Shown here: positions 36,330 through 61,653 of the stretch, piece by piece | Layout of the letters: every line of letters starts with the position of its first letter | Numbering within the stretch: position 1 is the first letter of the stretch | Notes under the pieces: generated by a model | The model's input: the letters and a program-made list of their open reading frames with translations, nothing else | Databases searched by the model: none | Told to the model about the DNA's origin: nothing | Made by a program: the position numbers and the translations under genes | Assembly: GCA_963781885.1 (NCBI GenBank) | Contig: CAWAHW010000004.1 | Location: 744,800-808,799, forward strand | Length of the DNA: 64,000 nt | Reading direction: 5' to 3' | From: an uncultured Spirochaetota bacterium | GTDB lineage: Bacteria > Spirochaetota > Spirochaetia > SZUA-6 > Fen-1364

Positions 36330-36339
36330 ATCCGGCCCC

Positions 36340-44084: not shown

Positions 44085-45614
44085 CTACGCCTTTTCGGGA
44101 GGACATGTCAGCTTGGGAACGATATTCTGAGGTAGAAGCGCAACGTACTGCTCCGTTGTCGTCGCGGAAATCAGCTCATCGAACAGGAACCGCAGATACC
44201 AATACGGTTCGTGCCCATTAGCTTTCGCGGTTTCAATGATGCTGTAGAGGGCAGCACTTGCCTGCGCCCCGCGAGAGGTGGCGCTGAATAGCCAGTTCTT
44301 CCTCCCTACCACGAACGGCCGTATGGCGTTCTCGGCAAGGTTGTTGTCAGGATGCAGCATCCCGTTCTCCGGGTACCGCTCCAGCCTTTCCCACTGCCCA
44401 AGGGAATATCCGACCGCCTTGCCCAGCAGCCCCTGGGGCGGCGTCTGATCACGAAGGTCCTCAAGCCATTTCTTGAACGCTGCCAGCAAGGGTTTCGCCT
44501 TTCGAGTGCGCAGTTCGGCTCTCTGCTCATCATCAAGACCCCGTTGATCAGCCTCAACTTCCACGGCATAGAGCTTACGGATGTGCTCGATGGCCTCATG
44601 CGCCGCCGATCCAGCTGCCGCTACCTTGGTGACATCCACAAACTTGCGTCGTGCATGAGCCCAGCAGCCCATCATCACCACACCGTCGCAGCGGCCCAAC
44701 TTGTCGTAGCCGCGGTAGCCATCGGTCTGTGCATACCCCTGGTAGCCATCCAGGAACTCGTAGGGCACGTCGCCACTGCGTGAGGGGTGATAGGCATAGA
44801 CCAGGGTGGGAGCTTTCGGATTCCCGCCCCGATATACCCACATCTGGCTCGTTGATCCCGGATCACTCAATACCTGCAACGGTGTCTCATCGATCTGCAC
44901 GTAGGGCCCAGCCCGTATCTGGTCTCGCATCAGCTGCAGAAATGGTTCCAGCCTCTGAGCCACCTCCATAGCCCAGCTGCACATCGTTGTCCGTGACAGA
45001 TCCACTCCCATGCGGGCGAATATCTTCTCCTGGCGGTAGAACGGCAGGGCGTCGGCGAACTTGCTCACCATCAGGTAGGCCAGGAGTTCGGGAGTAGCGA
45101 TGCTCTTGGGGATCAATTGAGGAGCCGGCGGGGCGATCTTCACCGCACCCCCCTCTGTATCCACTCCCTGGCATGCTCGGCAGGCGTACTGGGGCCTCAC
45201 ATGCTGAATGACCTTCGCATGGGCAGGAATGATCTGCAACTGCTCGCTCACCTCTTGCCCGATGCGGCTCATTACCGCTCCGCAGGCGCACACCTTCTGC
45301 TCTTCGGGGATATCGTGCACCACTACTTCCCGCGGCAAGTTCTCAGGCAGCGGGCGGCGACCGGCTTTCTTGCGCGTGTGGCCAGCAACGGCAATGACGG
45401 GTTCTTCAGGCTCGGAGGCTTCAACGGCCGCTGAGGATCCCTGCTCGGCCTCGTTGAAAAGCCGCGCCTGCTTCTCCTCCGCCTCACGATCCGCGGAGCG
45501 CCCGAAGCGGTGAGCTTTGGCCAACCGTAGCTCTTCTTCAAGAATCTGGATCGTCTTGCCCTGCTCGATAACCAAATGGCGCAGCTCCTGCACATCCGTG
45601 GGAATATCAGCCAT
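44085..45614 (-). CDS. tnpC: IS66 transposase TnpC
   Basis: LPENLPRE; CACG..C..C zinc finger; LPFYRQ; IDETP; TDGY; CWAHARRKF; DNNLAENAIR. Confidence 0.95.
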   Translation of the reverse strand: MADIPTDVQELRHLVIEQGKTIQILEEELRLAKAHRFGRSADREAEEKQARLFNEAEQGSSAAVEASEPEEPVIAVAGHTRKKAGRRPLPENLPREVVVHDIPEEQKVCACGAVMSRIGQEVSEQLQIIPAHAKVIQHVRPQYACRACQGVDTEGGAVKIAPPAPQLIPKSIATPELLAYLMVSKFADALPFYRQEKIFARMGVDLSRTTMCSWAMEVAQRLEPFLQLMRDQIRAGPYVQIDETPLQVLSDPGSTSQMWVYRGGNPKAPTLVYAYHPSRSGDVPYEFLDGYQGYAQTDGYRGYDKLGRCDGVVMMGCWAHARRKFVDVTKVAAAGSAAHEAIEHIRKLYAVEVEADQRGLDDEQRAELRTRKAKPLLAAFKKWLEDLRDQTPPQGLLGKAVGYSLGQWERLERYPENGMLHPDNNLAENAIRPFVVGRKNWLFSATSRGAQASAALYSIIETAKANGHEPYWYLRFLFDELISATTTEQYVALLPQNIVPKLTCPPEKA

Positions 45615-45679
45615 GTTAGCCACGCGTGTCACGGGCACATGCGTAGCATTGTTGACTTCCGGACGTTCAAGGACTTTTC

Positions 45680-46027
45680 TCAAACAACTCGGGAGTATTT
45701 CACTTCCGCGTGCGCTTCCCTGACATCAAGACCCGCCAACAACCATTCCAGTTGCCGACCATCCATCTGCATGACCTCCGCGGCGCTCTTCGGCCAGCGG
45801 AATCGATCACGTTCCAGGCGCTTCTGCCAAAGGCAGAAGCCGTTACGGTCCCAGTAGAGAACCTTGATCCTATTGCGCCCTCGGTTGCTGAAGACGAAAT
45901 ACCCGCCCCCCAGAGGATCGTGCCCCATATGCTGCTGCGCCAGGATCGCCAGCCCATTGATCGCCTTTCTCATATCCGTGACGCCCACTGCCAGGTAGAC
46001 CTTCGCGTTGGTCTCCAGTCTCATCAT
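45680..46027 (-). CDS. tnpB: IS66 accessory TnpB
   Basis: TDMRKAINGL; KVLYWDRNGFCLWQKRLE. Confidence 0.95.
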   Translation of the reverse strand: MMRLETNAKVYLAVGVTDMRKAINGLAILAQQHMGHDPLGGGYFVFSNRGRNRIKVLYWDRNGFCLWQKRLERDRFRWPKSAAEVMQMDGRQLEWLLAGLDVREAHAEVKYSRVV

Positions 46028-46365
46028 GCGCGACGCTCCACCACCTGCAACAACTCTTCCAGGGTACGGGTGCAGAATCCGGGGTACACCTCGATGTGAT
46101 ATCCCCTCCCTACCACAAGGCGAATAGCTCCATGTCGGTCAGGGTTCATCATCGTATGCGGCAGTTGCATGGGCACGGGAACGAATGTGGCGGGTTTCTC
46201 ATCCTTTCCCATCAGCTTCAGTTTCCAGTAGACAAATGCATGTTTGGATATTTGATGCTCTCGGCAATACTCGACTTGTTTCAGGCCGCTGGCTTTCCAG
46301 GCCGCCAGTTGTTCGTTCCAGTATTGTCTCCTCTGCTCGTCCTGTCCTGCCTTTTCCAAATCCAT
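46024..46365 (-). CDS. tnpA: IS66 TnpA
   Basis: WKASGLKQVEYCREHQI...FVYWK; FVPV. Confidence 0.9.
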   Translation of the reverse strand: MDLEKAGQDEQRRQYWNEQLAAWKASGLKQVEYCREHQISKHAFVYWKLKLMGKDEKPATFVPVPMQLPHTMMNPDRHGAIRLVVGRGYHIEVYPGFCTRTLEELLQVVERRA

Positions 46366-46447
46366 GATGCTCCTCCTCGTGGTCGATTTGGGAGCATCAT
46401 TTCACGTAGATGATTTTTCCAGAAGTTGCGGTTTATCGGGCGCTTAG

Positions 46448-47565
46448 GATCAATCGCTTCAAGGCAGATGGTTCGAAAGGTTTGGAAGAACTCAGCCGAC
46501 GGCCGCATAGTTGCCCTTGGCAAATGGATGAACGGATTGCGGCGGATCTCATCGCGATGAGAAGAGCGCGGCCCAGCTTGGGACCGAAGAAGCTGCTGAA
46601 AAAGCTGCAGAAACGCCACCGCTATCTCGAGTTGCCCGCTGTGTCCACTGTGGCGCACCTTTTAGACCGAGAGAGTTTGATAGCCGAGCCCAGAAGACAC
46701 CGCCGAGCACATCCCGGATGCCCGAAGAACGTGGCTACTTCTCCCAACGACACCTGGGCGGCCGACTACAAGGGACAGTTTCGGCTGAAGAACGGCCAAT
46801 ACTGCTTCCCACTAACTGTCAGCGATCTGTATTCTCGCTTCCTGCTGGGCTGTGAGGCACACCCCGCAGTTTCCATGGAACGCACAATTGCCTATTTTAT
46901 GCACCTTTTCCGCACTTATGGGCTGCCCAACCGCATCCGAACTGATAACGGAGTGCCCTTTGCCTCCTGCGCTTTGGCTCGGCTTTCGGCTCTACAGGTG
47001 ATGTTCATCAAGTATGGGGTCTACCCAGAGCTGATCGAACCAGGAAAGCCGCAACAAAATGGAATCCATGAGCGCATGCATCGTACCCTCAAGCAGGAGG
47101 CCACCATACCTCCGGCGAGCAGCCTGAGCGGGCAGCAGAAAAAGTTTGATTCATTTAGGGAGGAGTTCAACACCGAGCGCCCGCACGAAGCTCTTGGCAT
47201 GGTCGAACCTGCAAGTGTGTACTGCCCCTCAGGACGAACGTTACCTGAGCATGTTGGCATCTACGACTATCCGCACCACTACCTGGTTCGGCGCGTGAGT
47301 CGCTGCGGTACCATTCGCGTGTTTCACAACCAGGTCTTTGTGACGCAAACCCTCAATGAGGAGTACGTGGGTCTCGAGGAAGTGGATGACGGGGTCTATG
47401 ATCTATACTTCTGTTTCTACCAGATTGGTCGCTACGAATTGCGCACCAACAAGATCCAGGATATTATCTCTCGGGTGCCAACCAGTCAGCCCCGGGCGGA
47501 TCTGACTTCGAGGGTGTTACCGATGTCTTTAGAATAATGTGTTACCCATGTCTTTGGACTGTACA
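46448..47565 (+). mobile_element. IS481-family element A, 5'-truncated at the IS66 end
   Basis: DDE core WAADYKG, RTDNG, QNGIHERMHRTLK (ORF to 47537); right end with doubled GTGTTAC..ATGTCTTT ending TGTACA. Confidence 0.85.
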
Positions 47566-47573
47566 GGACGGCT

Positions 47574-47689
47574 GCATAACAAATCGTTGGAGCACTCCGG
47601 ACTAGAATTTGGTCCACCAGACCCACTTCCGGGGCCGATCTTTGTGGTTTCTGTCTGATGCGGGCCGGGTGCTCAACTCTATGTTATAG
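47574..47689 (+). repeat. attC 1 (type A)
   Basis: R'' GCATAAC; L boxes GTTGGAGCACTCCGG/CCGGGTGCTCAAC with unpaired G and T; R' GTTATAG. Confidence 0.9.
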
Positions 47690-47726
47690 CTCCCAAAGGT
47701 CACTATTCGTCGGAGGAAATACGCTA

Positions 47727-48782
47727 GTGAGAACCGATCCAGTATCGCAGGTGCTGTCTTCCGTCTCCCGCGTCACCGATGTGCTCGTCACGGTACTCAT
47801 CCTTGGTTGCTCGGTCGGTGTGTTCTCGTCTGCCCTGGTATCATTGATAACACCGTCATCCATCGCCCTATTGGCCCTGCTTACAGTTTCGCTCCTGGCA
47901 ACCGCCGCCGCCTTCGTTCGACTCACATTCAGCGAGATCGCGGTTCGATCTGCGAGTATGACGGTTCCGACCGCTTTTGCTGTCAACTTGAAGACCGGCC
48001 GGGCATCCCCGCCTGTTCGCCTGCGAATGGCTGCCTCGGTGACGGCAGAGCCTCGGCCCTTTCCGATTGTTTTCCTCGAAGTTCACAATCGTCTCCAAGA
48101 CGCGGAACTGGATGCTGGAATCGACCGGCAGTTCTTTGAGCCGATGGCATGCCTCCTCTATGCGCTTCGGGACAAGCTGGGTGCCTGCGACGCTTTCGCT
48201 CCTCTACTCGCAAGAATAAGCCGCGGCCCTTTCATCAATAGCGTTGTTCAGCAACCGCTGTCTCATTTGCCGCAGGACATAGAGCAGATTGCACCCTCAA
48301 TTCTTGATACTGCAGTGCTACGTCGCTACTTTCACGGGCTCACATTCAACCTACCGACCGGTGTCACACTTCGTCTGTCCCTAAACCCTTTGGAGCTGTG
48401 GATTGCGGGATATGGTATCAGCCTTCGACTGCATCCGATAACCGCCGTGGCTGCCGGTGGAGCCACCTCCACATGGAAGCGACGTTTCTTCGATCACGAC
48501 AACTGCCGCATCTCGGGCGCTGCTTTCCACCTTACGCTTACCTACGGAGGCCCGGGGTTGCTATTTGTCCGCAAGAAGGTACAACCGCCCAAGTGGTCGA
48601 CGGAGGCCATCCTGAGTTGGTTTCAGGGCCTCGTTGACTGGATCAGCGGCTATCTCGATTGGCTGGATACCGATGACGAAATCAGGACTGCGGAGAGATT
48701 TGACCTAGTCACCGAATCGCCCCTTCACTATCGTTCGGCGTCTGGCTCTCTCCCCCCTGACATTGTGTTTGAGATTGAGTAG
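47727..48782 (+). CDS. cassette gene: hypothetical protein with two N-terminal TM helices
   Basis: RBS GGAGG + GTG; stop just before attC2. Confidence 0.7.
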   Translation: MRTDPVSQVLSSVSRVTDVLVTVLILGCSVGVFSSALVSLITPSSIALLALLTVSLLATAAAFVRLTFSEIAVRSASMTVPTAFAVNLKTGRASPPVRLRMAASVTAEPRPFPIVFLEVHNRLQDAELDAGIDRQFFEPMACLLYALRDKLGACDAFAPLLARISRGPFINSVVQQPLSHLPQDIEQIAPSILDTAVLRRYFHGLTFNLPTGVTLRLSLNPLELWIAGYGISLRLHPITAVAAGGATSTWKRRFFDHDNCRISGAAFHLTLTYGGPGLLFVRKKVQPPKWSTEAILSWFQGLVDWISGYLDWLDTDDEIRTAERFDLVTESPLHYRSASGSLPPDIVFEIE

Positions 48783-48790
48783 TGGATTGT

Positions 48791-48906
48791 GCCTAACAAA
48801 TCGTTGGACCAGTCGCCTTAGAATTTGTCTGGATTGACCCAACTTTGTCCTAATCGTCGGGTGGGGCTGGGGTGATGCGGCGGCGCTGGTCAACTCTATG
48901 TTAGGC
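48791..48906 (+). repeat. attC 2 (type B)
   Basis: GCCTAAC...GTTGGACCAGTCGCC/GGCGCTGGTCAAC...GTTAGGC. Confidence 0.9.
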
Positions 48907-48918
48907 GGATACAAACCT

Positions 48919-49716
48919 ATGTTTGTAGCGAGAAGTGAATCCTCCTCAAGGTGCATTGCTTGGGAAACCGAAAAGGACGAGGCGCCCTTCTTTTGCCCCG
49001 AATGTGACGCTCAAGTCATACTCAAGAAAGGACCCGCACGAATTGAGCATTTTGCGCATAAGCCCCCGGTGAATTGCATCTACGGTAAAGGGGAGACAGC
49101 GGACCACCTGCGCGCAAAGAAGGCGATTTACCTTGCTCTCCAAAAACACACAGACTGCACAAGATGCGAAATGGAGCGCTCCCTCAAGGGGGTACGGCCG
49201 GACATAAGCCTTCGCATTCGTGGAACTCCAGTTGCGATTGAAGTTCAGAATAGCTCAATCGCGATCGAAACGATCTTTCAACGCTCCGTGCGCTACTATG
49301 ACCTCGGTATCAGCGTCATGTGGGTCCTTCCAATGCACTTCCCAACTTCTGCTTACTACGATGAGGAAGAAGCTGAAGTTCACAGAATGAAGCATTGGGA
49401 AAAATATATTCAGGCCCTTCATTTTGGGCGTCTCTATTACTGGCAACTTGGAAGTTTCGTCCATGCTTATCATTTCAAACCATTTCGGAAGTACGTTCCG
49501 GAATCGGAGTGGTACAATCCCGATGGATCCCAAGAAACCCCTGGGGGGTACTATCAGGGGAGGAAGGACTTGCGAGAAGTGTGTAAGTTGGGGCCTCAAC
49601 TCCTAGATATCGCGTTCGACTTTGTTCCAAAAATGCACCGCAAGGTATTTGCCATTTCTCAAGGGAGAATTCCAATTTGTAGCACATGGCAAGACAATGT
49701 GCAGAGATGGTGGTAG
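48919..49716 (+). CDS. cassette gene: CoiA-like PD-(D/E)xK nuclease-family protein
   Basis: FFCPEC..VILKKG..IEHFAH; GETADHLRAK; VRPDI; VAIEVQNS. Confidence 0.8.
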   Translation: MFVARSESSSRCIAWETEKDEAPFFCPECDAQVILKKGPARIEHFAHKPPVNCIYGKGETADHLRAKKAIYLALQKHTDCTRCEMERSLKGVRPDISLRIRGTPVAIEVQNSSIAIETIFQRSVRYYDLGISVMWVLPMHFPTSAYYDEEEAEVHRMKHWEKYIQALHFGRLYYWQLGSFVHAYHFKPFRKYVPESEWYNPDGSQETPGGYYQGRKDLREVCKLGPQLLDIAFDFVPKMHRKVFAISQGRIPICSTWQDNVQRWW

Positions 49717-49721
49717 TATCC

Positions 49722-49836
49722 GCCTAACAAATCGTTGGACCAGTCGCCTAGGATTTCTTGTGGATAGACCCAACTTTTTCCTAATCGTCGGGTGGGGCCG
49801 GTTGATGCGGCGGCGCTGGTCAACTCTATGTTATGT
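49722..49836 (+). repeat. attC 3 (type B)
   Basis: GCCTAAC...GTTATGT. Confidence 0.9.
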
Positions 49837-49935
49837 CCATCCGCAATTTGATCGACTGCGACTGTATTACCCTGCTTGCGGACGCCGCATTGACGGCTCA
49901 CGTAGATCAAGGTAGAATACTATTGGAGGCATTCT

Positions 49936-50130
49936 ATGGCCAAAGAAGATCCAAAAAAAGGAACCGAGTCTAGGGACAAGGTTTTCAGCGAAAGCTTGGA
50001 ATTCGTGCAGGACTCTGCAGATGCCTTGTCTTCGGCCGCGGAGACGGCTGGACCGCCACCAAAGCTCTTTGTGAACAAGAAGCAGGCATCCAAGGCACCG
50101 AACAGCGACAAGAAGAAGGGAAATAGCTAA
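49936..50130 (+). CDS. small charged protein
   Basis: RBS GGAGG; 64 aa. Confidence 0.55.
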   Translation: MAKEDPKKGTESRDKVFSESLEFVQDSADALSSAAETAGPPPKLFVNKKQASKAPNSDKKKGNS

Positions 50131-50147
50131 CCTCGCCTTGAGGCTAT

Positions 50148-51141
50148 ATGGCCCTACCCGCGGATCTTATCGTTTCCCTACTTTTTCTCTTACCCGGCTT
50201 TTTGGTTGTGCAGGCTAGACGCCGTGCCAAGGAGTATGTTCAGCATGAAGCTTTTGAATTCACTATCATTTCCCTGGCATTCAGCTTTTTTCTTCTTTTA
50301 CTGTGGGTAGCTATTTGTCTTTTCCAAAGGGCGCTAATCGATTCGAAATTTTCTGTCTTTCAGTCTCTAGAAGAATATGTCTCGAAGTCCGGGGTTGCCT
50401 CCCTTTTCAATAGCTATGTCTATATTGCACTCATTTGCTATTTGCTAGTTTTCTTGACTTTTACCTTCGTTGCATATGCGTTTGCATATTCGTCTACCCT
50501 TCACTTTGTCGTGCGGATTTTTGGCCTCAGGAGAAGGACAAGGCATCTGACCCCGTGGGAGGACTTCCTTCATCTAAATCGGAGGCGTTGGGTAAGCATT
50601 TCACTCAACGATAATCGAACTTACGTAGGACGAGTTGGAATTTTCAGCCATAAACCATTTGAGGATGAACTTATTCTGATTAAACCCTGCTCTTTCTCTT
50701 TGCCATACTTCCTTGCTGGTCGCAATCAAACGAAGCTCCGCCAGGATGGTTCGAAGGCGATGCTGTAACCGAATCATCTCTCGCTGGGATTTGGTGGATC
50801 GACGTGCCGTTAGTGATCAAAAGCATGGAATCATCACCTACAAAGGCACAAAGCAACAGCGTACGTCCAAACCTTTGGCAAGCGTCTACATACCTTCTCG
50901 CAGCATTGTTTCAATGGAGTCATACGTCTCGGGAGTAGAGAGGAAGGAACTGGTTTGGCACCATTGGGTGCTCCTTGTGGCAGCTTTCGCTCTTTTCGTC
51001 TTCTTGGCAAGAGTTTCCTATACGATTCCGGCGGCAGCATTTCATATCAGACGGATAGAATTGATTGACTGGATTACGCTTGGCGGCATAGCCGCGTGCG
51101 TTGCATCAATGCTGTTCATGCGATCATCTTTTTCACGTTAG
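50148..51141 (+). CDS. membrane protein, DUF6338-like (probable frameshift near 50700)
   Basis: LLFLLPGFL; TPWEDF; WVSISLNDNRTYVG; continues in ORF 50713-51141. Confidence 0.6.
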
Positions 51142-51278
51142 CAATCCTATTATAGTAGGTTAGAAAATCCTTCAGTCCCGACAAGCAATTCTACTGCTAG
51201 ACATTGGGCCGCTCAAGCATATGGACTCGATAGATTTATGAAGAAGGCTTCCTTGGAATCCAATCGATTTTTTGGTGG

Positions 51279-51394
51279 GCATAACATAGAGTTGACCAGC
51301 GCCGCCGCATCAACCAGCCCCACCTCGACGATTAGGAAAACGCTGGGTCTAAACAGAGAAAATCCTAGGCGACTGGTCCAACGATTTGTTATGT
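51279..51394 (-). repeat. attC 4 (type B), inverted
   Basis: Reverse complement reads ACATAACAAATCGTTGGACCAGTCGCC...GGCGCTGGTCAACTCTATGTTATGC. Confidence 0.9.
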
Positions 51395-51517
51395 CCATCC
51401 TGGCGATAATTGAGGTATGAAGTCAACGCATCTTGCCAAGCGTCGTTCAGATGCTGCAAAAATGAAGGCAATTCAACCTTTAGGACTCTACTCAATTTGA
51501 CACAAGAAAGCTGGTGG

Positions 51518-51632
51518 GCATAACAAGTCGTTGGAGCACTCCAGGCTGAATTTGCTCCAATAGACCCGCTTCCGGCCCAAATCTTCGTGGTCTTTGTCTG
51601 ATGCGGGCCGGGTGCTCAACTCTATGTTCTGC
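51518..51632 (+). repeat. attC 5 (type A)
   Basis: GCATAAC...GTTCTGC. Confidence 0.9.
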
Positions 51633-51772
51633 GCATCTTTGATATTGAAGCTATTAGCAGGCGGCCAGGTTTCCGAATGATCCGTCACTTCCGTCCCCAC
51701 TACAACTTCCATTTCTGCGAACCGTGTGATATCATACACATGAAAGGCAAATGGAACGAAATGACAGGACAA

Positions 51773-52090
51773 ATGGAGTCAGTAGAAACCCGGCAGGCAA
51801 TCATAGACTACATCGACTCACAGATGCCGCGGTTTCGTAGCACATATTATGTTCGCAAAATGGCTCTTATTGGATCATTTGCCAGAGATGAACAGACTTC
51901 TGGTAGTGATATTGATCTGCTGATAGACCTTGAACCCGGGGCACCCGACATTCACCAAATCAAGCATATCCTCAAGGCTGAGCTCGAGCAACATTTTGGT
52001 CGAAGGGTGGAGATTGCGTCCGAGCGCTACCTGAAACCATACTATAGAAAGCAGATACTCCAGGAAGCTATTTATGTCCAGCAAGGATGA
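51773..52090 (+). CDS. minimal nucleotidyltransferase (MNT) antitoxin
   Basis: LIGSFARDEQTSGSDIDLLID; start codon uncertain. Confidence 0.88.
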   Translation: MESVETRQAIIDYIDSQMPRFRSTYYVRKMALIGSFARDEQTSGSDIDLLIDLEPGAPDIHQIKHILKAELEQHFGRRVEIASERYLKPYYRKQILQEAIYVQQG

Positions 52091-52418
52091 AGCCAATCTT
52101 TTGGCAATCCTCGACTCAATGCAAAGGATCAAAGAATACATCCAAGGTATCAACTCGCCTGATGACTTCTTGAAATCAAAGGTAGTCTTTGACGCTACCT
52201 TAATGAACTTCATTAATATTGGAGAGATGGCAGACCGATTGTCGATCAACCTCCGCGATCAAAACAGTGACGTCGACTGGCAAAAGATAAAGGACTTCAG
52301 AAATATCGTTGCGCACGATTACCTTGGAATTGATGCTGAAGAAGTATGGCAGATAATTCAAAGTGACATCCCTTCTTTGAAAAAGTCGATTGAAAAAATC
52401 TTAGCCACATTCCAGTAG
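52074..52418 (+). CDS. HEPN (DUF86) RNase toxin
   Basis: INIGEMA; WQKIKDFRNIVAHDY (Rx4H). Confidence 0.9.
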   Translation: MSSKDEANLLAILDSMQRIKEYIQGINSPDDFLKSKVVFDATLMNFINIGEMADRLSINLRDQNSDVDWQKIKDFRNIVAHDYLGIDAEEVWQIIQSDIPSLKKSIEKILATFQ

Positions 52419-52439
52419 TGCCAATGGACTCGAAAGAGC

Positions 52440-52553
52440 GCAGAACAAATCGTTGGAGCACTCCAGGCTGAATTTGCTCGAATAGACCCGCTTCCGGAGC
52501 AAATCGGTGTGGTGCCTTCTGATGCGGGCCGGGTGCTCAACTCTATGTTAGAT
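52440..52553 (+). repeat. attC 6 (type A)
   Basis: GCAGAAC...GTTAGAT. Confidence 0.9.
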
Positions 52554-52633
52554 GCTCCAAGATAAGGAGCATTCTCACTTGCGGGTAAACGGTCTCTCTT
52601 GACGTGGTGCTGAAATATAACTATATTGTAACT

Positions 52634-52921
52634 ATGGCAAGCATTACGGTTCGCAACATACCTGATGACGTGCTTGGGAAGATCAAAGCACTTTCTTCAA
52701 TAGAGAAGCGCAGTGTCAACAACGAGATTCTCGTGATCCTCGAGCGGGGAACATATGATGAGTATGAGGACAAACTGCAAAAGCGCAAGTATCTCTCAAA
52801 GGCTACTCAGGTTGAGATCTGGAAACGTTTGGCGGGTACCTGGGAGGATAGCCGATCCGCAAAGGAGATAATTGAAGACATCTATACCCACAGAACGGGT
52901 GGCCGTGACGTGCAGCCATGA
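52634..52921 (+). CDS. FitA/Arc-like RHH antitoxin
   Basis: MASITVRNIPDDV...RSVNNEILVILE; promoter TTGACG-17-TATATT at 52599-52627. Confidence 0.85.
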   Translation: MASITVRNIPDDVLGKIKALSSIEKRSVNNEILVILERGTYDEYEDKLQKRKYLSKATQVEIWKRLAGTWEDSRSAKEIIEDIYTHRTGGRDVQP

Positions 52922-53307
52922 TCCTGATAGACACTGATGTCTGCATCGACCTATTGAAAGGAAACAAAAAGATCCTCCGCCGACGTGAAGAGTATGATGG
53001 GCCAATAGGCGTTTGTTTCATGACAATAGCCGAGCTCTTTTATGGAGCTCAAAAGTCGAGTGACCCTTCCAGGAATATCGACACAGTAGAAAGGCTTCTT
53101 CTAACGCTTGAAATAGTGCAGTCCGATCTCAGCATCTTAAAACGATTCGGAACCATCAAGGCCCAGCTTCAGAATGCGGGAATGCCGATCGCGGATGCTG
53201 ATATCCTTATAGCTTCAGCTACGCTTGAAAAGGCAGAAAAGCTTATTACCGGGAACACCAAGCACTTTGAACGCATTCCCGGGCTGAGTTTGGAGGACTG
53301 GCGTTAA
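52918..53307 (+). CDS. vapC: PIN-domain toxin VapC
   Basis: LIDTDVCI; TIAELFYGA; ADILIASAT; LITGNTKHFERIPGL. Confidence 0.92.
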   Translation: MILIDTDVCIDLLKGNKKILRRREEYDGPIGVCFMTIAELFYGAQKSSDPSRNIDTVERLLLTLEIVQSDLSILKRFGTIKAQLQNAGMPIADADILIASATLEKAEKLITGNTKHFERIPGLSLEDWR

Positions 53308-53373
53308 GGCGCTTTCCTTTCTACTAGGCAGGAATTGACACGAATAGACAAACATCGATTGAAATCGCGGAGC

Positions 53374-53489
53374 ATCTAACAAATCGTTGGAGCACTCCGG
53401 ACTAGAATTTGGTCCAGCAGACCCGCTTTCGGTGCAAATCTTTGTGGTCTTTGTCTGATGCGGGCCGGGTGCTCAACTCTATGTTAGGC
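53374..53489 (+). repeat. attC 7 (type A)
   Basis: ATCTAAC...GTTAGGC. Confidence 0.9.
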
Positions 53490-53497
53490 GCATCGTG

Positions 53498-54816
53498 GGT
53501 CCTGTCTAAGCACATCGTTGACAGAATTCTAAGCACATCGTTGACACTTTTTTGGGCGACGTTTTCTCCGAGAGGAGAGCGGGATGCCCTGGAGGGAACG
53601 GTCAGCGATGGACGAAAAGGCTAGTTTCGTTCTTGAGTGGGAGTCAGGCCAGCACACGTTCACTGCTCTGTGCAAATCTTATGGTATCTCCCGTACTTTA
53701 GGTTACCGCTACATACTGCGCTATCTGTTGCGGGGTGTAGCGGGACTCAAGGAGCAATCGCGGGCTCCGCGGCGGGTGTGGAACCGCACTGCACCGAGCA
53801 TCGAGCGGGCAATCGTACGAATACGAGGCAGGTGGCCTCGCATGGGTCCGCTGAAGATCTTTCAGCTGCTCACGGAGAGGTATGGTGGTCGGCGGAAGGT
53901 GCCTTCGGTGGCGACGATCGCCTTGGTGCTCAAACGCTATGGCCTAGTCAAGAAGCGGCGCCGCGTTCGTCGCATTCGAGAGATGCACCCGATCTTTGAG
54001 GCGAAGGCCCCCAACGAGATCTGGAGCGTGGACTTCAAAGGGAAGTTCCGCATGGGCGACGGGCGCTACTGCTACCCGCTGACCGTCATGGACGCCTACA
54101 GCCGCTTTGTGCTGGCGGTGGTGGGAATGCATAATCCCACATATGAGGGCACAAAGGCCGTATTTGAGGCCCTTTTCAAGAAGTACGGTTTGCCCAAACA
54201 GATCCACAGTGACAACGGAGAGCCCTTCGCCAGTGGGGTGAGCCTCTCGCGGCTTACGCGGCTTGCCGTCTGGCTCATGGATCTGGGGATCCAGCCGGTC
54301 TATTCTGACCCGGCTCACCCCGAGCAGAACGGTAGTCACGAGCGGATGCACGAAGAGCTAAAGGCTGAGGCCACAAAGCCGGCCGCCTACAGCCTGGTCC
54401 AGCAGCAACACAAGTTCGACGCCTTTCGTCATTTCTACAACGTGCAGCGTCCTCATCAGACGCTGGGACAGAGGAGGCCCAAGGAGTTCTACCGCCACTC
54501 CCCTCGCCGCCTTCCACGCATAACTAGGACCTGGAAGTATCCAGAAGGCATGTGCACGAAATACGTTTGCCGCAACGGGGCAATCCGCTGGGGCTCCAGC
54601 AAGTGGGTCGTCGTCAGCACAACGCTGATCGAGAAGTACGTCGGACTGGAGCAGATCGTGAAGGGCAAGTGGCGCGTGTATTACCGCGACACCCTGTTAG
54701 GCTATCTTGACGAGCGGCAGCTGCGCATCCAGGATGAGCTCGGCCGCTTGGTTAGGGCAGCGAGATAACTGTTAGGATGTGCTGCGAAAAGTGTCAACGA
54801 TGTGTTAGTTAGGACA
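53498..54816 (+). mobile_element. IS481-family element B, copy 1
   Basis: IRs GGTCCTGTCTAAGCACATCGTTGACA / (rc) TGTCCTAACTAACACATCGTTGACA; boundaries from identity with copy 2. Confidence 0.92.
53584..54768 (+). CDS. IS481-family transposase
   Basis: MPWRE; WSVDFKG; HSDNGEPF; QNGSHERMH. Confidence 0.95.
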   Translation: MPWRERSAMDEKASFVLEWESGQHTFTALCKSYGISRTLGYRYILRYLLRGVAGLKEQSRAPRRVWNRTAPSIERAIVRIRGRWPRMGPLKIFQLLTERYGGRRKVPSVATIALVLKRYGLVKKRRRVRRIREMHPIFEAKAPNEIWSVDFKGKFRMGDGRYCYPLTVMDAYSRFVLAVVGMHNPTYEGTKAVFEALFKKYGLPKQIHSDNGEPFASGVSLSRLTRLAVWLMDLGIQPVYSDPAHPEQNGSHERMHEELKAEATKPAAYSLVQQQHKFDAFRHFYNVQRPHQTLGQRRPKEFYRHSPRRLPRITRTWKYPEGMCTKYVCRNGAIRWGSSKWVVVSTTLIEKYVGLEQIVKGKWRVYYRDTLLGYLDERQLRIQDELGRLVRAAR

Positions 54817-54908
54817 TAGTAACTTTGGAGGTTCGTCATTCATGAGCAAGGACCGGTTGGCGGTAGTTCTTGGTGCTGGATCCACGCTGGAATTGGGATT
54901 CCCAACAA

Positions 54909-55468
54909 ATAAAGCATCCACCTCCAGAGGAGGTGGTTTTGAACCCCGGCCTCTAAAAGAGGCCTGCTTCTTCGTGCTCTTTCTCTTCGAGCCGCTCGTT
55001 TTCTTCCTGGTATCGTACGTAGCGACGTATCTTCTCTTCATCCAGCCCTATCGTCGTTACGCAATAGCCGCGGCTCCAGAAATGATTTCCCCAGTATGGT
55101 TTCCGCTTCAAGCTCTTGTAGTTTTGAAATATTCCTATTGCTGTCTTGCCCTTCAAAATCCCCATCAGTTCTGATATCGATACCCTTGGAGGAACGTTTA
55201 CCACCAGATGCACATGATCTTTCATCACATTCAGTTCCTCTATTCCACTATCCTTCCATTCGCAGATCGCCCTGATACGTCCTTCGACGTACTTCGCTAC
55301 AGCACCTTCAAGTATTCGAAATCTATACTTGGGGCACCATACTATGTGATAGCTGCACTGGTAGACCACGTGCGATTGTTTTTTCCATTTCGTCATGTTT
55401 CGATTTTATTCGCATTCCGTCTTACGGCATAGCCATCAGGACATCACCACCGCCATAGGCGGTGGGTT
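54909..55468 (-). mobile_element. IS200-type element (ends approximate)
   Basis: Subterminal hairpins CCACCTCC-aga-GGAGGTGG and CCACCGCC-ata-GGCGGTGG. Confidence 0.85.
54953..55396 (-). CDS. tnpA: IS200 Y1 HUH transposase
   Basis: YHIVWCPKYR; DHVHL; HFWSRGY; IRRYVRYQ. Confidence 0.95.
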   Translation of the reverse strand: MTKWKKQSHVVYQCSYHIVWCPKYRFRILEGAVAKYVEGRIRAICEWKDSGIEELNVMKDHVHLVVNVPPRVSISELMGILKGKTAIGIFQNYKSLKRKPYWGNHFWSRGYCVTTIGLDEEKIRRYVRYQEENERLEEKEHEEAGLF

Positions 55469-56423
55469 ATCAAGTCTCACTCAAGACCTAACCAAGCGCC
55501 TCATGAAAGACTGTGCAGCAGCTCGCGCTGCGGCCGTTGAATTGGCCTGCCACACCAACTTTAACTTCGAGGACCTATTTCAGCACCTTGTAGACAATTA
55601 CCGTGCCGCGCATTCCGTACAGAACAGCGTCGACCTCGATCCGAAGCAAACTCTCCAAGACCTTCAGTGTTGCATTCGCTCCGTCAAGGAAGCTATCATA
55701 GGCGCCGCAGTCAGACGCTGCTTCTTGGCACAATTCAGTGATTTCTACCACGAACTTGCAAAAAGCTTTGACCTTGATATCGTCAGCCTCAACTATGATA
55801 GTCTTTTCGAGACGGACATATTCGGAGAAACAATCCAAAACGGGTTCACAGTTAGGACTGGCAACTTCTGGCAGTTTGATAGCGCGTTTGCCACTCGCGT
55901 TCCGGATCGACATAGAATCCTGCGACTCCATGGCTGTGTCAACTTCGTTCCGGCGTACGATCTAAACGTAGTCACTTCGGACAACGAGTCTAGCGCTGAC
56001 TACTTTCAGCGTCATTCCATGTACTGGTCGAACCATGCAAGGCAGACGCTTTTCACGACCGTCAGCAGTTTTGGCGGTCAACAGATTCCAGCTGGAGGAA
56101 TCGAATTCTCAAAAGGTGAACCAATATCCCCAATCATAACCGGACTCCAGAAGGACCACTTCTTTAGCGTCGAACCCTACCACAGCTATTACGAAATGCT
56201 CCAGGGCCTGTTTCAGAATCCACGATTGCTGGTCGTGGGCTACAACTACAACGCCAACGACCAGCACCTGAATCAGCATCTCCAACATCAGCGCAATAGA
56301 GTCCTCATAAACATGAACCCGGCGCTCTCGTCTGAACTGGATAATGGTAAGTGTCTTCAGCTAAGTACTGGCTTCATGGATTCCGTACGCAAGATCGGTA
56401 TGATAGTTGATCACCTACGGGCA

Positions 56424-56539
56424 GTCTAACAAATCGTTGGAGCACTCCGGGCTAAAATTCGCTGCATCAGACCCACTTCCGGTGCAAATCTTTGTGATCT
56501 TTGTCTGATGCGGGCCGGGTGCTCAACTCTATGTTATAT
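56424..56539 (+). repeat. attC 8 (type A)
   Basis: GTCTAAC...GTTATAT. Confidence 0.9.
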
Positions 56540-56715
56540 GGCATAAAATATTCTCTAAGCTTCCCAGATTGGTTCGCCTTCTCATAACGCCGAGCCATCT
56601 ATACCGAAGTCATCGGACGTCGAACAGCGTCCACAATCGATTTAAGGTTATTGATTTCTCGCCACTTGTCAAATTGACTAGTCTGCGTCTCAAATCTTTC
56701 ATGTGGGAGGCAAAA

Positions 56716-57228
56716 ATGGAACAACTGATTTATCAAACGTCGCCGGTGGTGACTCTCGCGACAAATAGGTTTATCAATGTACCAATTATCTTTCAGTACG
56801 AGGACACTCCCTTAATTGTAATAGTTAAGGAACAATCCCTCGGCTATACATCGAGTATCCCTATTTACGATTCAGCTGGGACTTGTTTGGCCAAGATAAA
56901 TGGCACCAGGATATTTCCAACCGCAGAGGGCAAGACGGTTGATATACAAATTGAAAAACGTAGTCTACTTACTATCTGTAAGATCGGCAGCCGCACGGCA
57001 TTCGAGATTCATCATCAACCGGGAGATGCTTTTCGAATAGTAGCAGAGCTTTATGCTCCCGATGGCTACTTCGTCAAATTTGAAGAGCAACCGCAGCCGA
57101 AACTCCTTGACGCCAGCGGAAACGCTATCAAAGTGGGCGGAGTTACCATGATCGGCAACACTATAGAGAATTTACGCATCGGCGTTTGGCTTAAAAAGGA
57201 TGGATCTTGCTTAATCGGCGTGAGCTAA
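56716..57228 (+). CDS. cassette gene: beta-rich hypothetical protein
   Basis: RBS GGAGG + ATG 56716; sole long ORF of the cassette. Confidence 0.7.
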   Translation: MEQLIYQTSPVVTLATNRFINVPIIFQYEDTPLIVIVKEQSLGYTSSIPIYDSAGTCLAKINGTRIFPTAEGKTVDIQIEKRSLLTICKIGSRTAFEIHHQPGDAFRIVAELYAPDGYFVKFEEQPQPKLLDASGNAIKVGGVTMIGNTIENLRIGVWLKKDGSCLIGVS

Positions 57229-57393
57229 CTTTTCTGATCTGAGAATTACTCTTTATCCAGAGAATGCCCCGTGCTTCCTGCTCGCTCGCAGCATGACACG
57301 TTCTGCTAGATTTCGAGAAGCGCCCAGATATTTGACATCGCTTGGATCTGAGTCCTTGTAGAATTCAGCGGCGTATCGTTTGGAACCAATGCC

Positions 57394-57509
57394 ATATAAC
57401 AAATCGTTGGAGCACTCCGGGCTAGAATTTGCTCCATCAGACCCGCTGCCGGTGCCAATCGTTGTGGTTTTTGTCTGATGCGGGCCGGGTGCTCAACTCT
57501 ATGTTAGCC
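57394..57509 (+). repeat. attC 9 (type A)
   Basis: ATATAAC...GTTAGCC. Confidence 0.9.
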
Positions 57510-57518
57510 TCATTCATT

Positions 57519-58837
57519 GGTCCTGTCTAAGCACATCGTTGACAGAATTCTAAGCACATCGTTGACACTTTTTTGGGCGACGTTTTCTCCGAGAGGAGAG
57601 CGGGATGCCCTGGAGGGAACGGTCAGCGATGGACGAAAAGGCTAGTTTCGTTCTTGAGTGGGAGTCAGGCCAGCACACGTTCACTGCTCTGTGCAAATCT
57701 TATGGTATCTCCCGTACTTTAGGTTACCGCTACATACTGCGCTATCTGTTGCGGGGTGTAGCGGGACTCAAGGAGCAATCGCGGGCTCCGCGGCGGGTGT
57801 GGAACCGCACTGCACCGAGCATCGAGCGGGCAATCGTACGAATACGAGGCAGGTGGCCTCGCATGGGTCCGCTGAAGATCTTTCAGCTGCTCACGGAGAG
57901 GTATGGTGGTCGGCGGAAGGTGCCTTCGGTGGCGACGATCGCCTTGGTGCTCAAACGCTATGGCCTAGTCAAGAAGCGGCGCCGCGTTCGTCGCATTCGA
58001 GAGATGCACCCGATCTTTGAGGCGAAGGCCCCCAACGAGATCTGGAGCGTGGACTTCAAAGGGAAGTTCCGCATGGGCGACGGGCGCTACTGCTACCCGC
58101 TGACCGTCATGGACGCCTACAGCCGCTTTGTGCTGGCGGTGGTGGGAATGCATAATCCCACATATGAGGGCACAAAGGCCGTATTTGAGGCCCTTTTCAA
58201 GAAGTACGGTTTGCCCAAACAGATCCACAGTGACAACGGAGAGCCCTTCGCCAGTGGGGTGAGCCTCTCGCGGCTTACGCGGCTTGCCGTCTGGCTCATG
58301 GATCTGGGGATCCAGCCGGTCTATTCTGACCCGGCTCACCCCGAGCAGAACGGTAGTCACGAGCGGATGCACGAAGAGCTAAAGGCTGAGGCCACAAAGC
58401 CGGCCGCCTACAGCCTGGTCCAGCAGCAACACAAGTTCGACGCCTTTCGTCATTTCTACAACGTGCAGCGTCCTCATCAGACGCTGGGACAGAGGAGGCC
58501 CAAGGAGTTCTACCGCCACTCCCCTCGCCGCCTTCCACGCATAACTAGGACCTGGAAGTATCCAGAAGGCATGTGCACGAAATACGTTTGCCGCAACGGG
58601 GCAATCCGCTGGGGCTCCAGCAAGTGGGTCGTCGTCAGCACAACGCTGATCGAGAAGTACGTCGGACTGGAGCAGATCGTGAAGGGCAAGTGGCGCGTGT
58701 ATTACCGCGACACCCTGTTAGGCTATCTTGACGAGCGGCAGCTGCGCATCCAGGATGAGCTCGGCCGCTTGGTTAGGGCAGCGAGATAACTGTTAGGATG
58801 TGCTGCGAAAAGTGTCAACGATGTGTTAGTTAGGACA
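57519..58837 (+). mobile_element. IS481-family element B, copy 2
   Basis: Matches 53498-54816 at offset 4021. Confidence 0.92.
57605..58789 (+). CDS. IS481-family transposase
   Basis: Protein identical to 53584-54768. Confidence 0.95.
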   Translation: MPWRERSAMDEKASFVLEWESGQHTFTALCKSYGISRTLGYRYILRYLLRGVAGLKEQSRAPRRVWNRTAPSIERAIVRIRGRWPRMGPLKIFQLLTERYGGRRKVPSVATIALVLKRYGLVKKRRRVRRIREMHPIFEAKAPNEIWSVDFKGKFRMGDGRYCYPLTVMDAYSRFVLAVVGMHNPTYEGTKAVFEALFKKYGLPKQIHSDNGEPFASGVSLSRLTRLAVWLMDLGIQPVYSDPAHPEQNGSHERMHEELKAEATKPAAYSLVQQQHKFDAFRHFYNVQRPHQTLGQRRPKEFYRHSPRRLPRITRTWKYPEGMCTKYVCRNGAIRWGSSKWVVVSTTLIEKYVGLEQIVKGKWRVYYRDTLLGYLDERQLRIQDELGRLVRAAR

Positions 58838-58955
58838 CCGTGCTTGAAAACATCCCTAGAAAACCTGAATATGAGCACTGGCAAGTTGCGAGTGCCCGGA
58901 CGCCAGTCAACTCGAGATGCTCGCATAGCGGCCGGACAGCTGGACGGGAGGACAT

Positions 58956-59492
58956 ATGAAACCGCGCGGTCAACTAATGATCGAACACCGACTTATCGAA
59001 AAGTTCCTTGCTTTTGCCGCGGAAGCTACAAATGGTATGAAGGACAGCTCCTACAACCCCGTGCTAATAGACACAATCGTCGACTTCATAAAGACATATG
59101 CTGATAGAACCCATCATGGAAAGGAAGAAGATATTCTCTTTCATGAGCTAGTGGAAAGGGCAATCAGCGGCAATGATCTTGTTGTAATGAATGAACTAAT
59201 CCAGGAGCACAAACTGGCAAGGGAAAAAGTCGCTGAAATAGTGAAATTGAATGATCAATACCGCTCAGGCAGCAAGAAGGTCGTTTCCCAGATCAAAGAA
59301 ATCGTACTCTGGCTCGCTGACTTCTATCCAGTCCATATCTTGAAAGAGGACAAGGATTTCTTTCCAAAGAGTGAGGCTTATTTCAACCAAGTGGAATTGG
59401 AAGCAATGTTAGAAGCTTTCTGGACTTTTGACCGAAACATGATCCACGAGAAGTACCAAAGGCTATATGAAAGCCTCAGGCTTAAGTCATAA
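58956..59492 (+). CDS. cassette gene: hemerythrin (HHE) domain protein
   Basis: LMIEHRLI; YADRTHHGKEEDILF; LIQEH; HILKED. Confidence 0.88.
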   Translation: MKPRGQLMIEHRLIEKFLAFAAEATNGMKDSSYNPVLIDTIVDFIKTYADRTHHGKEEDILFHELVERAISGNDLVVMNELIQEHKLAREKVAEIVKLNDQYRSGSKKVVSQIKEIVLWLADFYPVHILKEDKDFFPKSEAYFNQVELEAMLEAFWTFDRNMIHEKYQRLYESLRLKS

Positions 59493-59536
59493 AAACGCTT
59501 CATTTGATCAAGTGAGCGGCTTTTTGAAATGGAGCC

Positions 59537-59651
59537 GCGTAACAAATCGTTGCAGTACTCCAGGCAGAATTCGCTCGAATAGACCCGCTTCCGTAGCAAA
59601 TCGGGGTGGTGCCGTTCTGATGCGGGCCGGGTACTGAACTCTATGTTATGT
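59537..59651 (+). repeat. attC 10 (type A')
   Basis: GCGTAAC...GTTGCAGTACTCC/GGGTACTGAAC...GTTATGT. Confidence 0.9.
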
Positions 59652-59807
59652 CCAATCAGAGTCTGTTTTCGTACAAATTTGATTGAGAAAACCACCTTTC
59701 TGATACATTTCGGGCAGATTGATATCTTTACCTCGATAGGCGGGAAGCAAGCTGGAATACTTGACAAATGTATGACAACGTAGTACGTTACGGGTACGAG
59801 GTGACCC

Positions 59808-60026
59808 ATGAAACAAGCGGTTACAGTACGGCTGCCCGATGAATTGCGGAAAGAACTGCAGCAAATAAGCGACAACGAAGCTAAACCCATAAGCGACCTT
59901 GTTCGGGAGTCAATTCAGAAATTTGTCTCAGTCTATAACTTTCGGCGGCTCCGCAACACTGTTCTACCTTTTGCTGAAGCACAAGGAATCCTTACGGACG
60001 AGGATGTCTTTCGCACCATATCATGA
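59808..60026 (+). CDS. CopG/RHH antitoxin
   Basis: VTVRLPDELRKEL...SDLVRESI...GILTDEDVF; promoter TTGACA-17-TACGTT at 59761-59789. Confidence 0.85.
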   Translation: MKQAVTVRLPDELRKELQQISDNEAKPISDLVRESIQKFVSVYNFRRLRNTVLPFAEAQGILTDEDVFRTIS

Positions 60027-60439
60027 AAGTTGTGCTAGACACAAACGTGATAGTTGCAGCATTCGCCACGCAGGGACTATGTCATGCTGTATTTGAGATG
60101 TGCCTGGACCAGCAAGATCTATACCTGAGTTCGGAAATACTTAACGAGATAGCTGACGCGTTGAAACGGAAGCTAAAAGTTCCACCTCAAACTATCCAAG
60201 ACACCCTTGAATACCTAAAAGAGCATTCAACTGTTTTTCATGTCAAACCGCTAGGCAAACGCATTTCAAGGGATCAAAATGATGACCATATCATTGCCCT
60301 TGCTGAACAAGCGTTGGCAGATTACATCATTACTGGGGATGAGGACTTGCTAGTACTCAAGAAGCACAAAGGCATTCCGATCATACAGCCAAGACAGTTT
60401 TGGGAAATAATGAAGAACACAGAACGAACTAACGGATGA
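60023..60439 (+). CDS. PIN-family toxin
   Basis: VVLDTNVIVAA; RDQNDDHII; ADYIITGDEDLL. Confidence 0.9.
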   Translation: MKVVLDTNVIVAAFATQGLCHAVFEMCLDQQDLYLSSEILNEIADALKRKLKVPPQTIQDTLEYLKEHSTVFHVKPLGKRISRDQNDDHIIALAEQALADYIITGDEDLLVLKKHKGIPIIQPRQFWEIMKNTERTNG

Positions 60440-60465
60440 CCTAACGCCATTTGAAAATAGATTGG

Positions 60466-60582
60466 ACATAACAAATCGTTGGAGCACTCCGGGCTAAGAA
60501 TCTGCTCCAATAGACCCGCTTCCGGTGCCAGTCTTTGTGGTTTTTGTCTGATGCGGGCCGGGTGCTCAACTCTATGTTATGA
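60466..60582 (+). repeat. attC 11 (type A)
   Basis: ACATAAC...GTTATGA. Confidence 0.9.
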
Positions 60583-60737: not shown

Positions 60738-60742
60738 TCGAT

Positions 60743-61623: not shown

Positions 61624-61653
61624 TCATTCAAAGGATTAACAGTAGGTAACCGT

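Follow-up and report, generated by a model that had tools for sequence, protein, structure and literature searches.

IS481-type insertion sequences placed at a fixed distance from integron attC sites in an uncultured Spirochaetota bacterium, and related elements in other phyla

Results

Two types of insertion sequence (IS), IS481-A and IS481-B, lie beside integron attC sites in a 64,000-nucleotide stretch of DNA from an uncultured Spirochaetota bacterium (assembly GCA_963781885.1, contig CAWAHW010000004.1, positions 744,800 to 808,799; this whole stretch is called the window). The window is G000:C4:744800-808799, where G000 denotes the source genome of 4.64 Mb and C1-C6 its contigs, and it forms the end of contig C4. 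The attC-facing tip of these elements stands on the outer side of an R box (GTTRRRY or its partner RYYYAAC), at a distance of 7-9 bp (range 5-10); the attC site is left intact, and the IS comes to lie inside a cassette. IS481-A and IS481-B very probably represent a subgroup of IS481-like DDE elements which choose their target relative to attC, an attC-anchored capture by the transposase. An earlier note had proposed attC-directed target choice from the three cases in the window, and the proposal is now supported by the copies genome-wide, by empty sites, by a congener, by loci of other phyla and by public metagenome contigs.

Copy 1 of IS481-B (53498-54816, + strand, 1319 bp, GGTCCTG...TTAGGACA), with a transposase open reading frame (ORF) of 394 aa at 53584-54768, begins 8 nt after the R' box GTTAGGC (53483-53489) of attC7 (53374-53489, + strand, R'' ATCTAAC), the spacer being GCATCGTG (53490-53497). 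Copy 2 (57519-58837, + strand, ORF 57605-58789), identical to copy 1 over its 1319 bp, follows the R' box GTTAGCC (57503-57509) of attC9 (57394-57509, + strand, R'' ATATAAC) after the 9-nt spacer TCATTCATT (57510-57518). IS481-A is present in the window as its 3' 1.1 kb only (46447-47565, + strand, ending ...GGACTGTACA), and its tip stands 8 nt (GGACGGCT, 47566-47573) before the R'' box GCATAAC (47574-47580) of attC1 (47574-47689, + strand, R' GTTATAG, nhmmer E=2e-34), the first of the 13 attC sites. A full IS481-A copy of 1348 bp, 99.8% identical to the window fragment, is found at G000:C6:58769-60116. The transposases of both types carry the Pfam domains rve, rve_3 and HTH_32, and are 38-40% identical to each other. 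The earlier note had placed all three tips at exactly these coordinates; it was also right about the GG start of both IS481-B copies, the co-orientation of the three elements with the array and the intactness of the attC beside each of them, which is complete from R'' to R'.

Seven full IS481-B copies and a 485-bp piece at the start of contig C6 were detected by BLAST. In seven of these eight, a complete attC precedes the left end, its GTTRRRY box lying 5, 7, 7, 7, 8, 8 and 9 nt away; all seven are co-oriented with the array, and the eight left flanks all differ. A third type, IS-C, which is 74-77% identical to IS481-B and is itself interrupted, begins 7 nt after R', so that 8/9 of the B-type left ends (IS481-B and IS-C) follow an R' at a distance of 5-9 nt (5, 7, 7, 7, 7, 8, 8, 9), each at an attC site of its own and co-oriented with it. 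The right ends of IS481-A are found 8 nt before an R'' box in 3/3 cases (window, full C6 copy and C5 fragment), with three different flanks; the spacers at the latter two copies are CGGAATGA and CTCTATGA. The mapping that had been suggested as a check thus gives a placement that is not random, and the flanks are unrelated, as had been claimed. By our own arithmetic, ~525 of ~9.3 million oriented positions qualify, which sets the chance of 8/9 at ~1e-33, or at ~1e-21 when only the ~130 kb of arrays is considered.

An unrelated element, the IS200-like IS, served as control. Its five genome copies, two of them outside the arrays on contig C2, show no fixed offset, and the copies inside arrays lie 156-164 nt from R'. 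The matches of the IS481 model NF033577 (E<=1e-20) in the genome are all in array regions (11/11), one of them being really an IS3-like element which cuts an attC at its R' box. This IS3-like element (C5:332825-334167, an orfA-type ORF followed by an rve ORF) starts inside the attC just before the GTT of R', at the extreme end of contig C5.

In most cassettes, the stretch that follows R' of one attC is reverse-complementary to the stretch that precedes R'' of the next, in runs of 9-14 nt, and this start/end complementarity is the signature of a formerly circular cassette. The position of the IS is the same in cassettes with 9-nt and with 13-nt complementarity; the insertion point tracks the R box, and not the end of the complementary run. 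The elements had earlier been described as landing just outside an extended stem of 12-13 bp. That stem is the start/end complementarity of 9-14 nt, and the description has to be replaced by a distance from the R box.

The elements insert by ordinary transposition with a target duplication of 3-4 bp, as evident from empty paralogous sites. These sites read GTTAGCCATA|TTGG|AATGG for IS481-B, GTTAGAAGGTT|TTC|AGATT for IS-C and AAAAG|CGG|AATGAGGCTAAC for IS481-A. The last lies in the window, in an uninterrupted paralogue of a GNAT cassette, where the empty target CGG (62260-62262, + strand) is 5 nt before the R'' box GGCTAAC (62268-62274); it defines the ends of IS481-A and its 3-bp duplication CGG. 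The spacer in front of IS481-B copy 2 (TCATTCATT) is the start of a GNAT-type cassette that is also present without IS, the same start (GTTAGCCTCATTCATT) being found at C6:60749. Capture of an IS circle by the integron integrase (IntI) was also considered as a route of insertion and dropped, since the crossover would then be at G|TT, not 8 nt off, and without duplication.

Three IS481-B copies in cassettes with matching start and end are each flanked by a short direct repeat (TTGG, TTT and CAA). Three others, both window copies included, have no direct repeat and lie in cassettes with a mismatched start and end (runs of 4-5); at copy 1 in the window the cassette start and the next R'' flank are complementary over a run of only 5. 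In the regions 53490-54830 and 57510-58850 of the window and in G000:C6:29687-31005, the start of a cassette is fused to the body of a different one. The copies without duplication are best read as products of IS-IS recombination after insertion, homologous recombination between IS copies accounting for hybrid cassettes that lack duplications. No missing partners of the hybrid flanks were found among the cassettes of the genome. Such recombination between IS copies seems to remodel the array and to break it up. Contigs C6 and C4 end at or near IS copies.

Single contigs from short-read assemblies of three public metagenome runs (X1-X3), one of which may be the source sample, carry further junctions. 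In X1, the IS481-A tip lies 8 nt before another R'' (GCCTAAC), and in X2 IS481-B, with one difference in 578 letters, lies 8 nt after another R' (GTTATGT). A contig of X3 holds the exact empty site of an IS481-B copy, with 464/464 letters of the flanking cassette identical and joined to a different attC, which hints at recent cassette shuffling and recent transposition. The cassette in question, which carries IS481-B at G000:C6:32762-37080 (locus L005), thus occurs without IS in another sample of the same study. The earlier idea that the IS rides inside cassettes holds in so far as the elements lie within cassette boundaries beside a whole attC, so that carriage is structurally possible; no cassette-plus-IS unit was found at two positions in the arrays of this genome.

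Relatives in a congener and in other phyla

The attC-flank trait is specific to certain clades of the transposase tree, and occurs in several phyla whose attC sites share little beyond the R boxes and the fold. A congener (G015) has five A-like copies of two subtypes (72% nucleotide identity) within 40 kb of one contig, and 4/5 of them end 8, 8, 8 and 9 nt before the R'' boxes of different attC sites. A wider scan was made with one genome per species and an alignment of A/B-type transposases as query, and the best 80 of 178 confirmed loci were studied. Tips were predicted from a conserved 13-nt subterminal motif, which lies 12-13 nt from the tip in elements of known ends, and flanks were also read directly; this anchoring replaced inverted-repeat detection by local alignment, which had set the tips several nucleotides too far in. 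Fifteen loci could not be evaluated owing to short flanks or lack of recognisable ends, and 33/65 of the evaluable ones are attC-adjacent.

These fall into two classes. In class B (17 loci), a GG tip lies upstream of the transposase gene, which points away from attC, and GTTRRRY is found 7-10 nt before the tip. In class A, the gene points toward attC and RYYYAAC follows the downstream tip after 6-9 nt at 16/19 evaluable loci, a GTT box being present 6-9 nt from the far end at only 1/19. Genomes with several copies in the set are all consistent (4/4, 3/3, 3/3 and 2/2 copies). Going by record titles, the hosts include Spirochaetota, Bacteroidales, Fibrobacteres, Thermoanaerobaculia and other Acidobacteriota, Nitrospirae, Neomarinimicrobiota, Gemmatimonadetes, Chloroflexota and delta-proteobacterial bins.

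Two features counted as independent signs of attC at these loci: a paired arm at a distance of 45 nt or more, and repeats of the element nearby. The duplex-of-arms score recovered 65/65 known sites at -12 kcal/mol with ~0.7 false matches per kb per strand, and because of this high rate it was applied at predicted tips only. In class B, the box itself takes part in an arm duplex at 10/15 scored loci; L056 has a duplex only on a neighbouring GTT, and L053, L056 and L097 have local repeats. L046 (one of the ten with a duplex), L052 and L055 retain only the IS-proximal half of the local attC. In class A, an independent sign is present at 13/16 loci.

At the loci of Thermoanaerobaculia it is the other R box that this GG end abuts, and the cassette genes run against the IS, so the co-orientation noted for the window elements does not extend to them; at the Spirochaetota, Bacteroidota, Chloroflexota and delta-type loci the cassette genes run with it. 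By our own reading, the Thermoanaerobaculia attC has its extra unpaired arm base on the other arm as compared to the pattern of the present genome. The same GG tip can therefore face whichever of the two R boxes of the palindrome, but it always docks on the outer side.

The transposases were placed in a quick maximum-likelihood tree (79 rows, LG+G4, SH-aLRT support only); L040, L079 and L104 were omitted for a stop codon or short length, and the tree holds no canonical IS481 member. Class A forms one clade (SH-aLRT 99) of 16 attC-adjacent, three other and two non-evaluable rows. The attC-adjacent rows of class B form two fully supported clades of seven rows each, one uniting IS481-B with Bacteroidota, Fibrobacterota and Spirochaeta rows and the other comprising Thermoanaerobaculia, together with three single rows. 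Rows in tandem repeats form a clade of their own (8/9). Context labels change 11 times on the tree, against 35 on average when shuffled, a contrast that near-copies inflate.

The members of this sister clade (L074, L087, L095, L096, L108, L112, L113 and L119 of Acidobacteriota, with L048 and L049) are set within short tandem repeats, CTCCCAA-type heptamers on both sides being one example, or within G-rich ones. In L112, a duplication of 3 bp (TTC) can be read. The sister clade has a different, equally narrow target habit. Among the other relatives, L065 lies between the short inverted repeats GGGCCCTCAC...GTGAGGGCCC, and L071, L106 and L109 likewise lie between inverted repeats, G/C-rich palindromes resembling repetitive extragenic palindromes (REP). 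The subgroup as a whole may favour hairpin-forming DNA.

Transposase and termini

The transposase is encoded by a single ORF with rve, rve_3, HTH_32, HTH_29 and HTH_28 domains (Pfam), the helix-turn-helix (HTH) plus rve arrangement of the IS481 type, and no helper gene (ATPase) is found in these elements. The AlphaFold2 model (mean pLDDT 87.4) displays a pair of helical bundles at the N-terminus, an RNase H core and, at the C-terminus, a beta domain of ~60 residues. Its nearest folds in the PDB are IstA, TnsB and retroviral integrases; the model and the fold search show this generic architecture only and give no pointer to a targeting surface. NF033577 (IS481) is the best NCBIfam model for 6/6 tested proteins, with 207.1-224.3 bits at a cut-off of 224 which L054 alone reaches, and it covers residues 12-302 only; the second-best model, IS3, scores 113-124 bits. 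In the source genome, 0/11 matches of NF033577 are above the curated cut-off. The transposases, of 394-408 aa, have K at the seventh residue after the catalytic E (HERMHxxLK in the alignment).

IS3 and IS481 tips are stated as 5'-TGT...ACA-3' in a preprint (bioRxiv 10.1101/2022.12.17.520857). This pair is not found at both ends of IS481-B, which reads GGTCC...GGACA, with one GG end, and one GG tip is likewise present in most class-B and many class-A relatives. IS481-A has the tips TGAATG...TGTACA. In both classes the far tip is TG... and the attC-facing tip is the unusual one: GG in class B, GG in most class-A relatives (GGTAC... inward) and TGTACA in IS481-A.

Discussion

A single transposase, with its two HTH domains, RNase H core and C-terminal beta domain, would measure a fixed distance from the R box. 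The candidate cues are the DNA sequence at the R box, an attC in folded or cruciform form, and IntI bound to the R box, and roughly equal odds may be given to the three. The centre of the 3-4 bp staggered cut is ~9-10 bp from the G|TT crossover of IntI, i.e. one helical turn outward of the R box, by our own arithmetic. A generic cue is favoured over host-specific sequence because related class-A transposases keep the 8-nt offset at unlike attC sites across phyla; a reading of sequence is indicated in at least one case, since the inverted repeats of IS481-B resemble the attC 5' arm well beyond random. Prediction of a complex of IntI and the transposase (alignments A3 and A2), with a score of 0.00 in two runs without controls, carries no weight for or against the third cue. 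The element would gain a place to land without harm, and might be carried along whenever IntI moves the cassette.

Several points weigh against target choice relative to attC. In the source genome, one IS481-B copy (C5:320044-321361, 94% identical) follows an attC truncated before its 3' arm, and one copy of the congener (L032) has no attC after it. The 80 loci of the wider scan were chosen by likeness to IS481-A and IS481-B, and several rows repeat records of two other genomes: L061, L088, L098 and L099 come from that of G015, and L040 is the locus of G008. Tips of single-copy elements were predicted from the subterminal motif only. Three of the 19 class-A loci (L070, L073 and L075) have no R box, and 32/65 evaluable loci lie elsewhere: tandem heptamer or G-rich repeats surround 11 of them, and the contexts of the remaining 21 are other ones, some of these loci lying between REP-like inverted repeats. 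Outside the genus, attC calls followed a simple rule, an R box accompanied by either an arm duplex or local repeats. L041, L051, L052 and L055 in class B have neither duplex nor local repeats (L041 and L051 were read by eye), and L063, L076 and L111 in class A have only the box at the right spacing. Two general hairpin detectors for attC performed poorly: one (7-mer match of R'' and R' plus minimum free energy of the whole hairpin) found 0-5 of 65 known sites, because the R' box in an array belongs to the next cassette, and the other (arm folding) missed clear cases. Target choice is argued here from comparison of sequences, and a cassette with its IS has not been seen to move.

The strongest competitor, though a rather unlikely one, is that the transposase binds an attC arm as a look-alike of its own inverted repeat and joins the other IS end beside it. 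IS911 and IS30 insert beside sequences like their inverted repeats. The inverted repeats of IS481-B do resemble the attC 5' arm (e.g. TAAGCACATCGTTGACAG vs TAACAAATCGTTGCAG), with local alignment scores of 10.5-11.7 against 94 attC sites as compared to 6.5 +/- 1.2 against 2000 random segments, the attC median being reached by 0.05%-1.9% of random segments; its right end also carries TCAAC-N4-TGTTAG, like an R' arm. The inverted repeats of IS481-A score like random (6.2-7.6 vs 5.9-6.1), yet it is the more precisely placed of the two. Close class-A transposases (end branches ~0.1-0.5) also insert 8 nt from unlike attC sites in Spirochaetota, Chloroflexota and delta-type hosts, and the R''-like box of the IS481-B tip is lost in the 85% relative L040, where the arm likeness is only partly kept. 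The two ends of IS481-B in the window (53498-53540 and 54785-54816) look like two attC arms, the left one reading GTCTAAG-CACATCGTTGACAG vs GTCTAAC-AAATCGTTGGAGCA.

Random insertion into the array, with survival only at cassette borders where genes and attC are spared, is highly improbable. Cassette borders are indeed non-coding, and arrays tolerate insertions, IS66, IS200-like and IS3-like elements being present as well. However, selection cannot yield a precision of 2 nt, a fixed orientation and a fixed choice of tip; 50-250 nt of non-coding DNA between R' and the cassette gene is available and unused, the IS200-like copies sit 156-164 nt from R', and the same offset recurs in other phyla. 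Still less credit can be given to a single old insertion, copied by IntI or by duplication of a unit of attC and IS, from which every copy inherited its distance. IntI does shuffle cassettes, and the attC sites of the array are 60-92% alike, but the spacer and the attC variant differ at every copy, three different duplications have matching empty sites, offsets vary over 5-9 nt, and the geometry is the same in three diverged element types (IS481-A, IS481-B and IS-C) and in other phyla. Target choice by the transposase relative to attC is hence preferred. A bolder form of it is conceivable, if doubtful: retroviral-integrase-like transposases across phyla would use the integron complex (an IntI-bound or folded attC R box) as a landmark and set their GG end one helical turn out, as obligate hitch-hikers of integrons moved by IntI as cassettes, with sister clades retuned to tandem heptamers or REP-like palindromes. 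If so, a compact single-protein system for structure- or protein-tethered DNA insertion would be at hand.

In comparison with known systems, the elements share with canonical IS481 of Bordetella an HTH plus rve transposase, a single ORF, a length of ~1.3 kb and NF033577 as best model. They differ from it in scores at or just under the cut-off of 224, in the extra C-terminal beta domain, ~90 aa beyond the model, in one GG tip and in the target, the attC flank here as against NCTAGN for IS481. IS1111-attC elements have a DEDD transposase and RNA-guided site choice, and insert inside attC without duplication. Tetu and Holmes in 2008 and Post and Hall in 2009 are said to have described them as specialised on attC in a fixed orientation. 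Specialisation on attC and fixed orientation are common to both, whereas the present elements have an rve-type DDE transposase and insert outside a complete attC with duplication, which sets them apart from that group. Group IIC-attC introns consist of a ribozyme and a reverse transcriptase and insert into attC. No genes of ribozyme or reverse-transcriptase type are found among the window elements (Pfam). Homing to attC in one orientation, which PMC3001079 reports for these introns, is a point of likeness; IS1111-attC elements are mentioned in PMC3971601 and PMC11187229.

The nearest analogue found is the ISAjo2/ISAba32 subgroup of the IS1202 family, the 'dif hunters' (PMC10132070 and bioRxiv 10.1101/2022.12.17.520857). 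These elements insert 5 bp from the XerC arm of dif/pdif, duplicate 5 bp and have TGT/ACA tips, and their authors cannot separate recognition of the recombinase from that of the site architecture; PMC10132070 also gives a transposase length of 441-457 aa and a Q seven residues past the catalytic E. Both groups have a single rve-type DDE transposase without helper, one orientation and a short duplication, and in both the same end is always set a few bp beyond the arm bound by a tyrosine recombinase, in a site that stays intact. They differ in that the present elements use an attC R box at 7-9 bp, a 3-4 bp duplication and one GG tip, and have K instead of Q, 394-408 aa and IS481 as best model, so that the family markers of IS1202 are absent. 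No IS1202-type model is best among the NCBIfam models, and the ISNCY model gives only 28-44 bits.

No report of IS481-type elements at attC flanks was found in the full-text literature, a coverage that leaves out ISfinder/TnPedia, subscription journals and supplements. As judged from the sequences, docking of such elements at attC flanks, not found described, would belong with the hunting of recombination sites by IS. Taken by analogy with the IS1202 'dif hunters', it suggests a general habit of rve-type transposases to dock beside tyrosine-recombinase sites, which might serve site-directed insertion. The known attC-seekers, IS1111-attC elements and group IIC-attC introns, insert into the site; docking just outside it keeps the cassette competent for recombination. 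A DDE element there could spread with cassettes, divide arrays into clusters of attC that lack an integrase, and remodel chromosomal integrons of large size; such remodelling is visible here from the hybrid cassettes, from contigs that break off at IS copies and from a part of the array separated from intI. For the annotation of integrons, these elements mark attC in phyla where attC finders are weak.

Integron array and other features of the window

A repeat-family search revealed 13 similar attC sites of ~117 nt each in the window, all on the + strand (47574-63365). A profile built from them retrieved 105 attC sites in the 4.64-Mb genome (nhmmer), clustered toward the ends of four contigs: C6:1-68 kb (65 sites), C4:792-809 kb, C5:300-334 kb and C1:1-11 kb. 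The gene at C6:69485-70420 encodes an integron integrase (TIGR02249, 400.8 bits, cut-off 265) and is oriented toward the C6 array. Imperfect palindromes between RYYYAAC and GTTRRRY, single-cassette spacing and an adjacent integron integrase identify the arrays as attC arrays. Since the 105 sites lie at contig ends and intI faces the C6 array, the window holds the end of one segment of a very large sedentary chromosomal integron, which the assembly leaves broken at repeats. Integron integrases are present in 14/20 searched genomes of the genus. A second integron-integrase-like gene (C5:114967-115890, 316.9 bits against the same cut-off of 265) is distant from every attC array found with the profile.

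To the left, the array piece of the window is bounded by an IS66-family element (~44065-46446, - strand; Pfam DDE_Tnp_IS66 and TnpB_IS66; three ORFs of 113, 115 and 532 aa) and conjugation genes, with no intI there, and is therefore detached from the intI of contig C6. The IS66-family element, a single copy in the genome with GTAAGCG-type ends (boundaries ±~2 nt), cuts IS481-A at ~46447 and replaces its 5' part, which the earlier note does not mention. The DNA on the other (left) side of the IS66-family element is not IS481-A, and no duplication of 8 bp is visible around it. VirB4-like, TrbL-like and DUF3631 genes of a conjugative element lie beyond it at 34761-43600.

The window copy of the IS200-like element (54908-55485, - strand, 578 bp; Y1 transposase of 147 aa, Pfam Y1_Tnp E=1e-39) lies 91 nt past IS481-B copy 1. 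The cassette genes at 47658-57228 encode a CoiA-like nuclease, a DUF6338 protein, a nucleotidyltransferase, a PIN-domain protein and a SIR2_2-like protein, and a hemerythrin gene lies in a cassette at 58956-59492. The cassette genes are the typical toxin-antitoxin or defence-flavoured cargo of large chromosomal integrons.

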